A stretch of 17,599 nucleotides of DNA from a virus (Duplodnaviria; Heunggongvirae; Uroviricota; Caudoviricetes). This document shows, one piece after another, positions 6,001-9,000 of this stretch. The stretch lies in IMG/VR virus record IMGVR_UViG_2826849342_000003; one strand, 5' to 3'. Numbering within the stretch: position 1 is the first letter of the stretch; every line of letters begins with the position of its first letter. Made by a program: the position numbers.

Positions 6001-9000
6001 TAGACCTGTGCAGACTGACAACGAGGACAATGAATGTTAACGCTGGCCATGAAAGAACCTCAAAAGCCCGCATTATACATCAGATTCAACTAATTAGAGG
6101 CATCACCCCTGAGTTTAACGGACACTCCTTCCTGAAATAGAATGGCATCAGAAGGAGCTAATAATGAGCAGAAAAACCCAACGTTACTCTAAAGAGTTCA
6201 AAGCCGAAGCTGTCAGAACGGTTCTTGAAAATCAACTTTCGATCAGTGAAGGCGCTTCCCGATTATCCCTTCCTGAAGGCACTTTAGGACAATGGGTTAC
6301 CGCCGCCAGAAAAGGGCTCGGTACTCCTGGTTCCCGCACGGTGGCTGAACTGGAATCTGAAATTCTGCAACTGCGTAAGGCGTTAAATGAAGCTCGCCTT
6401 GAGCGAGATATATTAAAAAAAACAACAGCGTATTTTGCACAGGAGTCGCTGAAAAATACGCGTTAATCGAACAATGGCGACAACAATTTCCCATTGAAGC
6501 GATGTGTCAGGTATTTGGTGTATCCAGGAGCGGTTATTACAACTGGGTACAGCATGAACCCTCAGACAGAAAACAAAGTGATGAGCGGCTAAAACTGGAG
6601 ATTAAGGTGGCACATATCCGCACTCGCGAAACATATGGAGCCCGGCGGCTCCAGACGGAGCTGGCAGAGAATGGCATCATCGTTGGTCGTGACCGACTGG
6701 CACGTCTTCGTAAGGAGCTAAGGCTACGCTGTAAGCAGAAACGCAAGTTCAGAGCGACTACGAACTCGAACCACAATCTGCCAGTTGCGCCAAATCTGCT
6801 GAACCAGACGTTCGCTCCTACAGCACCAAATCAGGTCTGGGTGGCGGACCTGACGTATGTTGCCACACAGGAGGGATGGTTGTACCTCGCTGGCATCAAA
6901 GATGTTTATACGTGCGAAATTGTCGGCTACGCCATGGGAGAGCGCATGACAAAAGAGCTGACAGGTAAAGCCCTGTTTATGGCGCTCAGGAGCCAGCGCC
7001 CACCTGCCGGGCTAATCCACCACTCTGATCGAGGTTCACAGTACTGCGCATACGATTACCGGGTCATACAGGAGCAGCTTGGTCTGAAAACATCAATGTC
7101 GCGTAAAGGTAACTGTTACGACAACGCTCCGATGGAAAGCTTCTGGGGAACGCTGAAAAATGAGAGCCTGAGCCACTATCGTTTTAATAACCGGGATGAA
7201 GCCATCTCAGTAATACGGGAATACATTGAGATTTTCTACAATCGTCAGCGTCGTCACTCTCGTCTGGGGAATATCTCCCCGGCAGCCTTCAGGGAAAAAT
7301 ATCATCATATGGCTGCTTAAAAAAAGAACAAATGGTAGTGTCCGCTATTGCCAGTACACCTCAGATATCGCCAACCAGATCCGAACTCCCCATGATGGAT
7401 GCGAGCTGCTCCTCGTTGTAATCCCGCCCAAATACGGTATTACTGGTTTTTACGCAAGCCAGATCAGGCATTGAGGGGGCAAAAAACTCGTAATCACTCA
7501 GATCACCACGCTGGATAAGCTCACGAATCGTTGTAGGCTTGATCAGGCATTCGTAGTACTTGCCCATCCAGGCCGCGAACGGGGTACCGGAAAGCCCAAG
7601 AACCCTGATGTCTTTGTCCCGGATAACCTCAAGTAACGCACGGCGCTTCATGTGTGCTTCATCGATGATCAGCAGATCGATATTGTCAGGGAACTCACGA
7701 CGGATCAGCGTGTCAGCGCTGGCAATCTGAATCAGTCGTGACGGGTCATAGTTAGGGTGATCACGCCATACAAAACTGATTTCTTCCCACGGCAAACCGT
7801 ATTCGGTGAAACGCTCTGCTGTCTGGTTCAGCAGGATTGTGTACGGGCAAACGAACATCACCCGCATACCACGTTCAACCATTCCGGCTGTGACGAATGC
7901 TGCAAGACCAGTTTTTCCAGAGCCAGTGAGTGCGTACATCAGGTACGTGCGATGCTGTTTCCACTCGTGCCGCAGCTGGTTTAAACCGCGCTCCTGTGCA
8001 AAGTTTGGGGTGATTTTCAGCATGACGCCCCCTTGCTACGTGGTTTACCCGTTGCCGGGATCACGTCGATCTCATCACTAACGTATTGTTCAGGATTTCG
8101 TGAGCAGCGCAGAAGCACGATACCAGGAATGCCGTATAGCTTGAGTCTGCGCAGTTTCAGTATTGAACGTGCCCGTGGTGATGCTCTGTCCACCTCGATC
8201 GCGCACCGTTCACCAGATGGGGCAACGGCCACGATATCGACGAATCCGCGCTTACCGTTGCCCATATCAACCAGATAATTACGTTCGATCGCCAGTCCGG
8301 CATCACGCAATTTGGCAGCCAGCACATAATCAAACGTGACCTTGTCTTTTCCGGTGTAGAATTGGTTTCCGAGCAGGCTGACAACCACATTTTTGATGAA
8401 CGCGGTACTATTTCCACTGTGATAGTTGGCGTGATAATAATTTCACAAGAAACCATCCCGCCATATACAGTGATCTACCTAACCTATGGAGCTGTCTTTC
8501 TGGTAGTGCCCTTACGGGCACGGATGTTACAGATCTGCCCCCTTACCCCCTTCTTAGTAAAATTTCAGACAAAATAATTTCACATACAATTATTTCTCAA
8601 GAAACAATACCTTACTGAGGTTTTACTCCTTCCGTATCGCTACTGGCGAAATCATCCAGCCACGGCTGGCTCTCGCGTACTTCTGGACATACACCCGTAA
8701 CCGGGTGTTGGCGCTCCGTCTTGCCCTGTTGCCCTTCCTGAACGATACAGGCTCCTTGTACCACTCTTCCTGGTACACTCTCGGGTGATGCCTCTAATTA
8801 GTTGAATCCGATGTATAATGCGGGCTTTTGAGGTTCTTTCATGGCCAGCGTTAACATTCATTGTCCTCGTTGTCAGTCTGCACAGGTCTACCGCCATGGT
8901 CAGAACCCTAAAGGCCATGACAGATTTCGCTGCCGTGACTGCCACCGCGTTTTTCAGCTCACTTACACTTATGAGGCCCGTAAGCCGGGCATTAAAGAGC

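Follow-up and report, generated by a model that had tools for sequence, protein, structure and literature searches.

Origins of phage replication usually lie in or beside the replication genes. The lambda origin consists of iterons inside gene O, which are bound by the O protein and activated by transcription from pR; ColE1 (through its RNA II) and phage T4 (at oriF and oriG) use origins of the transcript-primed, or R-loop, kind; and at oriS of herpes simplex virus 1 (HSV-1) the origin-binding protein, UL9, is itself a helicase of superfamily 2 (SF2). Here we analyze a 17,599-nucleotide stretch of viral DNA (Caudoviricetes; IMG/VR record IMGVR_UViG_2826849342_000003), referred to below as the window, and describe a conserved non-coding element that lies upstream of the SF2 helicase gene of a replication module which we identify as the published Eru1 replication unit.

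Eru1 is the non-lambdoid "EHEC phage replication unit" (EHEC, enterohemorrhagic Escherichia coli) of the Shiga toxin (Stx) phages TL-2011c and P13374 (Llarena et al. 2021, PMC8044961; follow-up PMC8951638). Some of the most virulent EHEC outbreak strains have their stx2a on Eru1 phages, for which a lower stability of the lysogens than with lambdoid Stx phages was reported (PMC8044961). The two papers define the unit by its proteins, and the terms "iteron", "repeat" and "origin of replication" do not appear in their text (PMC8044961, PMC8951638). Our literature searches turned up neither a described origin of Fels-1, TL-2011c or P13374 nor a paper that contains the box sequence defined below; the searchable literature holds no description of the Eru1 replication mode or origin location, and the element itself is apparently undescribed there.

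Intact relatives of the window locus, at 94-95% DNA identity, sit in Stx2a prophages of Shiga toxin-producing E. coli, where the gene order is cI, cro, a small open reading frame (ORF), a gap, a 128-aa ORF, a DEAD/DEAH helicase (506 aa), a primase with Zn-ribbon, DUF7146 and Toprim domains (323 aa), NinB-like, NinG, NinH, Q, tRNAs and stx2a. This is the Eru1 arrangement, with its 506-aa DEAD/DEAH SF2 helicase, 323-aa Zn-ribbon/Toprim primase and DUF1367/NinB-like protein downstream of cI/cro, and the cI and BsuBI-type restriction-modification genes of the window are likewise arranged as in TL-2011c. The window differs from Eru1 in that it retains helicase codons 1-220 only, whereas its intact relatives have the helicase, the primase and the DUF1367 protein.

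A conserved element in the early-right operon

The element lies in a 223-bp non-coding gap (8389-8611; the minus strand is the sense strand) that, according to the ORF map, extends from the stop codon (8612-8614) of an ORF of family phrog_852 to the start of a 123-aa ORF, and gene maps show a gap at the same place in intact relatives, among them TL-2011c (JQ011318, approximately 18910-19165) and Fels-1 (NC_010391, 6654-6893). The original prediction had pointed to iteron-like repeats in this region, upstream of a translationally coupled pair ending in an SF2 helicase, and had compared them to a replication origin or an operator array of a module other than lambda O/P. The module is indeed of another kind, namely of the Eru1 type (PMC8044961), and the repeats are indeed located in its control, or cis, region. 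As for the coupled pair, the 123-aa ORF (8388-8017, minus strand; 128 aa in relatives, phrog_1347) does share a 7-nt overlap with the start of the next ORF (8023-7361, minus strand), and the latter does correspond to the N-terminal 220 aa of a 506-aa SF2 helicase, which in an intact relative has ResIII, DEAD and Helicase_C domains; the operon is broken, however, the helicase being cut at 7364.

Loci for comparison were collected by homology to the small (123/128-aa) protein and not by a DNA motif, which yielded 67 loci on viral contigs; 43 distinct upstream regions from these loci, together with the window and four reference loci, gave the 48 distinct regions that were analyzed. A composite DNA pattern was then used to add further loci, bringing the collection to 185 loci with 61 distinct cores. 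A G-run (GGGGGTAAGGGGG or GGGGAGGGGG) and a box (GGTTA[AG]GTAGATC) occur at fixed distances in 39 of the 48 regions, the G-run approximately 70 nt upstream of the box and the box approximately 95-105 nt upstream of the start of the small-protein gene, and two further regions have variants of the box that differ by one base. All 41 SF2-helicase loci picked by protein alone contain the element, and all 61 distinct cores contain the G-run. An SF2 helicase-primase module is altogether missing from the nine loci without the element; several of them (L064-L068), like the Providencia phage L007, encode an O-like initiator (456-562 aa) followed by a DnaB-type helicase. The gene context is equally constant: among 90 distinct full contexts, the SF2 helicase gene comes next in 89 and the phrog_852 ORF of approximately 95 aa comes before in at least 83. 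Wherever the gene context could be resolved, the sense strand of the early-right operon carries the G-run, and the helicase is encoded on the same strand in 89 of the 90 contexts.

In the window, the core was delimited to 8465-8558 (minus strand) by a sequence profile built from 23 diverse relatives, and this match (62.8 bits, E = 2.4e-18) is the only one that the window contains. The 5' end of the core is formed by the G-run GGGGGTAAGGGGG (8538-8550, on the minus, i.e., sense and non-template, strand), and its 3' end by the nearly invariant box GGTTAGGTAGATC (8472-8484, minus strand), which contains GATC and corresponds to invariant columns of the alignment. The middle of the core is variable; in the window it holds a palindrome or hairpin, GTGCCC-TTAC-GGGCAC (8506-8521), the place of which is taken by different palindromes in other lineages. 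On the sense strand, G makes up 41% of the core and C 13%. The profile finds exactly one match in the complete genome of Fels-1 (E = 5e-20) and exactly one in the complete 37-kb genome of a Klebsiella phage (E = 9e-19), with no other match at E <= 10 in either, and these two phages have no replication genes other than those for phrog_852, the helicase, the primase and, where present, the small protein. Conservation of the core consists in invariance of its sequence and not in covariation, and no consensus fold was obtained for it across lineages on either strand (RNAalifold, -5.1 and -0.2 kcal/mol). The element is a conserved, single-copy, non-coding cis element with a fixed gene context, a strand bias and a defined architecture.

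Two other lines of search were set aside. A scan of a 596 Gb genome collection with the 14-mer AGGTTAGGTAGATC used too short a query, for among the 120 matches listed almost all were due to chance and the real ones were L106, L123 and L183. The 37-42-kb "plasmids" with a gene for this helicase turned out to be genomes of temperate phages, complete and with an integrase, and do not prove a plasmid-type replication.

Repeats, dyads and hairpins around the core

The repeats that were noticed originally flank this core, and two exact 12-mers and two degenerate copies are present as predicted. Exact matches to AATAATTTCACA in the window are two, at 8436-8447 (copy 1, sense TGTGAAATTATT, minus strand, on the downstream side of the core) and at 8573-8584 (copy 2, minus strand), and the degenerate copies are found at 8588 and at approximately 8558. 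The former, AATTATTTCTCA (8588-8599, minus strand), has two mismatches; the latter belongs to an array with a 15-bp period, AATTTCAGA / AATTTCACA / TATTTCTCA (8561-8596), located within a stretch of 75-85% AT. Tandem Repeats Finder reports this array with 2.4 copies and a score of 44, and an independent direct-repeat search gives it as 8561/8576. An exact 12-nt direct repeat within the gap is reached in 1 of 2000 dinucleotide shuffles. Counted over the whole window with up to two mismatches, the 12-mer occurs 5 times against 2.0 expected, a number reached by 13 of 200 shuffles and thus not significant, while the shorter motif TGAAATWATT is found in the 17.6 kb only at the two repeat sites (0.15 expected).

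The repeats are not classical tandem iterons. Tandem iterons would comprise at least three direct repeats of approximately 17-22 bp at regular spacing; here there are approximately 2.4 copies of a 15-bp unit and one distal copy, and the relatives have one dyad on each side of the core. Within the lineage of the window (type A) and that of TL-2011c (type B), the AATAATTTCACA copies are instead arms and loops of inverted repeats that show compensatory changes. On the upstream side, the degenerate copy AATTATTTCTCA and copy 2 provide, respectively, the 5' and the 3' arm (sense) of an inverted repeat, AAATAATT-N8-AATTATTT (8572-8595), the arms of which (8572-8579 and 8588-8595) are 100% complementary; in relatives, the arms are 10 bp long and the spacer 4 nt. 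The form of this upstream pair in types A and B is AAATAATTTC-N4-GAAATTATTT; at one of its positions A-T is replaced by G-C and, once, by G.T, and RNAalifold applied to eight relatives gives -8.5 kcal/mol with one pair at AU4/GC3/GU1. On the downstream side, copy 1 is located in the loop of a hairpin (8421-8457, minus strand) with the sense arms GATGGTT (8451-8457) and AACTATC (8421-8427) and an outer stem CACTGT/ACAGTG (8415-8420 and 8467-8472). The six distinct arm pairs of this hairpin, GATRGTT...AAYYATY, contain 35 Watson-Crick pairs, 7 G.U pairs, no A.C pair and no mismatch, and in the RNAalifold alignment one pair is at AU8/GU2/GC2. The sense strand of the window gap folds with z = -3.5, none of 200 shuffles being as stable, and the antisense strand with z = -1.5. 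A "closing stem" drawn manually around the core (GUGCCCGU/ACGGGUAC versus GGAGUUG/CAACUCC) was dropped because it is not kept in type B and in L253.

The expectation that the repeats would be conserved in homologous replication modules is borne out for the architecture, present in all 41 protein-selected loci and in 185 loci overall, but not for AATAATTTCACA, the conservation of which does not extend beyond the closest lineages (types A and B). Elsewhere the same positions are occupied by dyads of different sequence; the flank sequence is lineage-specific and the architecture general. In the Fels-1, phi467 and Klebsiella classes the dyads have the form GTAC-N9-11-GTAC and are found on both sides of the core in 71 of 112 distinct loci, compared to none in any of the 50 shuffles; their distances are 39-40 nt to the G-run on the upstream side and 32-33 nt from the box on the downstream side. 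Their 21 distinct upstream and 17 distinct downstream sequences have conserved ends and variable interiors. Since G.U pairs do not prevail over A.C pairs in them (16 and 18, respectively, downstream), as would be typical of RNA, the GTAC dyads look like DNA sites of a protein-binding type rather than RNA stems.

In types A and B the flanks hold [T/A]GAAAT half-sites, which are conserved in 21 related sequences and are approximately 7-fold enriched over shuffles on the upstream side. The exact identity of a 12-mer between the two sites is confined to the window and L008, while the nearest relatives share 8-9 nt. The best 14-mer match between the two flanks scores 10.76 versus 10.23 in shuffles, in a test that is almost powerless, and an unbiased search for the best palindrome across loci gave 6.6 versus 6.0 of 8, with shared arms at 2.49 versus 2.52. 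As the latter test is only marginal, we do not claim a uniform 22-bp dyad geometry. Elements of the L018/L019 and L233/L183 groups are chimeric: they are associated with near-identical phrog_852 proteins and similar helicase N-termini, and their upstream flanks carry TAGAT...ATCTA repeats in one group and GTAC-N10-GTAC in the other, which suggests that recombination occurred inside the conserved core.

A separate hairpin, with the conserved loop TTAAAGGT, is located near the end of the phrog_852 ORF in 134 of the 185 loci (for instance, at 8392-8413 in L315 and at 3255-3276 in L004, where it coincides with the stop codon); it is not present in the lineage of the window. In 38 distinct contexts its pairs 1-5 are Watson-Crick in 29-36, with several types of pairs, many G.U and almost no A.C, and judging from these pair types the hairpin is a sense-strand RNA signature. 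In the Klebsiella phage it is followed by a terminator-like hairpin with a T-run.

Proteins of the module and the surrounding prophage

Which protein could bind the dyads was considered by comparing the module proteins. The 123-aa protein, put forward originally as the cognate binder, is unlikely to be a repeat-binding initiator because it is optional, being present in 42 of the 90 distinct full contexts and absent from the others, more than half, which still carry flanking dyads, and because in TL-2011c its counterpart is only 37% identical while the motif and approximately 80 bp of flank, at 84% identity, are kept. The secondary structure elements of its family follow the order alpha-beta-beta-beta-alpha-beta, and the family is homologous to the central domain of O-like initiators of 390-562 aa (with a Phage_rep_O N-terminus in L007), the genes of which are followed by those of DnaB-type helicases. 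The O-like initiator genes contain 3-4 tandem iterons of approximately 23 bp (2854-2928 in L067; 3338-3427 in L007), 50-80 nt upstream of the region for the small-protein-like domain, and the element described here holds the same position relative to the stand-alone small-protein gene as these iterons do relative to the O-like domain. A D...E-x-D motif is conserved in the 123/128-aa family and, together with the above order of structure elements and faint matches to restriction endonucleases, suggests a nuclease-like fold. A structure model of the 123-aa protein was unusable (predicted local distance difference test, pLDDT, 39), a word-indexed protein search with the 128-aa protein returned close relatives only, and profile searches with both small proteins against the PDB gave nothing informative. 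Loci without the small protein keep a short relic of its 5' end. This stretch (...TTCYTGGAARAGTG...), seen upstream of the helicase gene in L203, L253, L183 and L315 (8650-8665), among others, corresponds to the codons for LLEEQF and may be either a deletion scar or a separately constrained site.

The phrog_852 protein is modeled as a three-helix protein (pLDDT 76) with no recognizable DNA-binding fold, and a fold search with it gave nothing informative (best E = 0.78); it contains an invariant basic motif, ENxARxxANTRLR. By its sequence, the helicase is closest to RadD, XPB and UvsW. An attempt to assign the binder by covariation failed: due to linkage, every protein of the module tracks the dyad class, phrog_852 most cleanly and the C-terminal part of the helicase no better than the others, and the L018/L233 pair breaks the pattern. 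CI and Cro are unlikely binders, and the repeats are correspondingly unlikely to be a CI/Cro operator array, because a motif search finds no TGAAATWATT in the cI-cro intergenic region (9949-10007) and because L001 and L002, with different cI/cro genes, have the motif in the same form.

The window itself is a lambdoid prophage remnant riddled with insertion sequences (ISs), with its early-right operon on the minus strand. The phrog_852 ORF, 93-97 aa long when intact, is parted into an N-terminal portion (9552-9678, minus strand, with a GTG start at 9678) and a C-terminal portion (8612-8783, minus strand) by an IS1 copy (8784-9551, plus strand), both junctions of which carry a duplicated CGAGAGTG. 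An IS1-mediated rearrangement of the segment was considered and rejected, as the junctions are those of simple insertions and a 10-nt "shared flank" is identical at only 7 of 10 positions. The Eru1A-type SF2 helicase gene is represented by its N-terminal 220 codons (7364-8023, minus strand); it is severed at 7364, after codon 220, by an IS3-family element (5326-7363, plus strand; orfA 6164-6466, orfB 6502-7320), and the primase gene and the remainder of the helicase gene are gone. With its upstream ORF split, its helicase truncated and its primase gone, the replication module of the window is dead, and the element is a relic there.

The IS3-family element is present in two inverted copies, 99% identical (2470-3734 and 5326-7363), encoding an orfA product of 100 aa and an orfB product of 272 aa, and the right-hand copy has a second IS1 (5347-6107) nested 8 nt inside its left end. 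Further to the right are another IS3-family element (14927-16131) and a third IS1 variant (16365-17062). Genes for an Eco57I-like methyltransferase and a BsuBI/PstI-type restriction endonuclease (10761-13234) directly adjoin the cI-like repressor gene (10008-10721), an arrangement common to TL-2011c and the O157:H7 strain ECP19-598. A perfect 7-bp tandem repeat, ACCAATC (14064-14113; 7.1 copies, 100% matches), is located just upstream of a Rha-family gene (14128-14544). A serine recombinase (invertase-like) and a tail-fiber fragment are found near the left end of the window (1218-1811), and a fragment of a chromosomal gene resembling those of sucrose phosphorylase/glucosyltransferase at the right end (16997-17599); both ends are consistent with a decayed prophage at a chromosomal junction.

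A candidate origin compared with rival readings and known systems

The feature detected in the window is, thus, the flank of a cis element; the flank varies between lineages, whereas the element is conserved and belongs to a replication module already known. The original observation is confirmed and its interpretation partly supported, and we consider the element to be the best candidate for the replication origin of Eru1 phages. Our tentative reading, to which we would give slightly less than an even chance, is that it is the cis-acting replication region, or candidate origin, of Eru1-type helicase-primase modules, possibly activated by transcription or an R-loop. Eru1 phages must have an origin, phage origins usually adjoin or lie in replication genes, and the element is the only conserved single-copy non-coding element of the module; in addition, the iterons in the related O-like initiator genes occupy a matching position. 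If this is the case, upon loss of the repressor, transcription from pR (the location of which upstream of the G-run is inferred from gene order) would pass through cro and the phrog_852 gene into the element, and the G-rich transcript might stay hybridized to the C-rich template strand as an R-loop, in the manner of ColE1 RNA II or of the mitochondrial CSB-II. Such an R-loop is suggested, through composition and analogy, by the excess of G over C in the core and by the G5-N-G5 run on the non-template strand, which resemble ColE1 RNA II and CSB-II. For G-runs of this kind, the CSB-II mechanism has been documented in mitochondria (PMC3488243). Alternatively, a conserved phage helicase or primase may bind the conserved box. 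Either event could open the duplex and allow the SF2 helicase and the Toprim primase to start replication, with the lineage-specific dyads serving as sites for some specificity factor.

Several observations weigh against the element being an origin. The repeat copies are inverted repeats and not classical tandem iterons, and a strongly AT-rich unwinding region exists only in the lineage of the window, where the upstream flank is 75-85% AT, the family mean being 58%. No DnaA box was noticed by eye, though no scan for one was made, and the GC skew is uninformative because its minimum coincides with a switch in the direction of transcription. No cognate binding protein for the dyads could be assigned from the module comparison, there is no O/Rep homolog in the module, and the upstream repeats differ between L018 and L233 despite their near-identical phrog_852 proteins and similar helicase N-termini. 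Finally, several parts of the gap covary as sense-strand RNA, and a role at the RNA level is at least partly real.

This last point leads to the possibility, which we take seriously while regarding it as unlikely on the whole, that the pR transcript has a structured leader, encoded by the gap, which controls expression of the replication genes through termination or antitermination, translation of the first downstream gene, or stability, and that the gap has no role as an origin; the repeats could then, with a similar degree of doubt, be merely the arms and loops of RNA hairpins. The mismatch-free pairing of the downstream hairpin, the compensated pair of the upstream inverted repeat and the sense-strand fold of the window gap, more stable than all 200 shuffles, would all be expected of such a leader, as would the covarying UUAAAGGU-loop hairpin toward the end of the phrog_852 ORF, with G.U frequent and A.C rare among its pairs, and the terminator-like hairpin that follows it in the Klebsiella phage; the basic motif of phrog_852 could bind nucleic acid. 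In the lineage of the window, however, the covarying positions are few and the sequences closely related; the core, conserved by sequence and not by pairing, has no consensus fold on either strand; the GTAC dyads have no RNA signature; and the Fels-1 region folds better on the antisense strand. No match was found to the Rfam 15 covariance models in positions 8000-10100 of the window even at E <= 1, and, in contrast to nutL/nutR or putL/putR, the element does not have a second copy in the genome. Moreover, an RNA role would also fit a transcript-primed origin, and thus does not exclude the origin reading.

That the repeats are operators for a DNA-binding regulator of the replication-operon promoter, be it of the Cro/CI type, phrog_852 or the 123-aa protein, appears improbable to us. 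Their dyad symmetry and the distance of approximately 140-160 bp between the two sites, which could support looping, would suit operators, and four weak sigma-70-like matches are present in the window gap where 0.7 are expected; yet promoter prediction finds nothing sigma-70-like in the corresponding gaps of Fels-1 and the Klebsiella phage, the cI-cro operator region lacks the motif, which does not follow changes of cI/cro, the 123-aa protein is optional and can be substituted while the motif stays, and the invariant G-run and box are left unexplained. It is very improbable that the repeats are a functionless product of chance or slippage in an AT-rich spacer. The window-wide 12-mer count, the restriction of the exact identity to the window and L008 and the marginal palindrome test would agree with this, but the local significance of 1 in 2000, the enrichment and conservation of the half-sites, the position-fixed dyads of other lineages (0 in shuffles) and the compensatory changes argue against it.

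Because the module of the window is an IS-disrupted relic, the biological weight of the finding for the window alone is small. For Eru1 phages in general, a candidate region of 250-300 bp with separable parts, i.e., the G-run, the box, the dyads and the hairpins, makes the question of the origin directly testable, and if the G-run works as in ColE1 or mitochondria, the element would be an R-loop origin of a bacterial virus served by an SF2 helicase. In a bolder form that we consider distinctly unlikely, Eru1-type phages (and with them the Stx2 phages from the outbreak strains O104:H4 and O103:H25) would start replication without an O-like initiator, using a CSB-II-like G-run origin at which an R-loop formed by the pR transcript (possibly with a hybrid G-quadruplex) is used by the RadD-like SF2 helicase and the Toprim primase and is tuned by the dyads and RNA hairpins. 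Should this be true, replication of Stx phages, and hence the dosage of the toxin gene, would be tied directly to the derepression of pR.

Like the lambda origin, the element is part of the early-right operon and is found beside the replication genes or inside them, and its repeats have a dyad character as well. In O-like initiators, one domain is a homolog of the small protein, and tandem iterons precede, at a short distance, the part of the gene that encodes it; a dependence on transcription from pR is plausible from the position of the element. Unlike in lambda, there is no O or P homolog in the module, the element is non-coding and not inside a gene, it has a single site or two on each side in place of four iterons of approximately 19 bp in tandem, it has no universal AT-rich region, and its G-rich invariant core has no lambda counterpart. 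With nutR of lambda and the put site of HK022 it shares the position in the pR transcript after cro and, in relatives, hairpins with conserved loops; it differs from them in being present once per genome, as the motif searches agree, and not as left and right copies, in that no boxA or boxB was noticed in it by eye, and in having no Rfam match. As at oriS of HSV-1, an SF2 helicase and a primase are encoded together, and a central region has dyad sites on either side; we claim no homology to UL9, and the C-terminal part of the helicase tracks the dyad class no better than other proteins do. The likeness to R-loop origins is an analogy of composition and position only. As in those origins, a G5-N1-3-G5 run is found on the non-template strand downstream of a strong promoter, there is a strong bias of G over C and structured RNA around the G-run, and the type C variant, GGGGAGGGGG, is similar to CSB-II.

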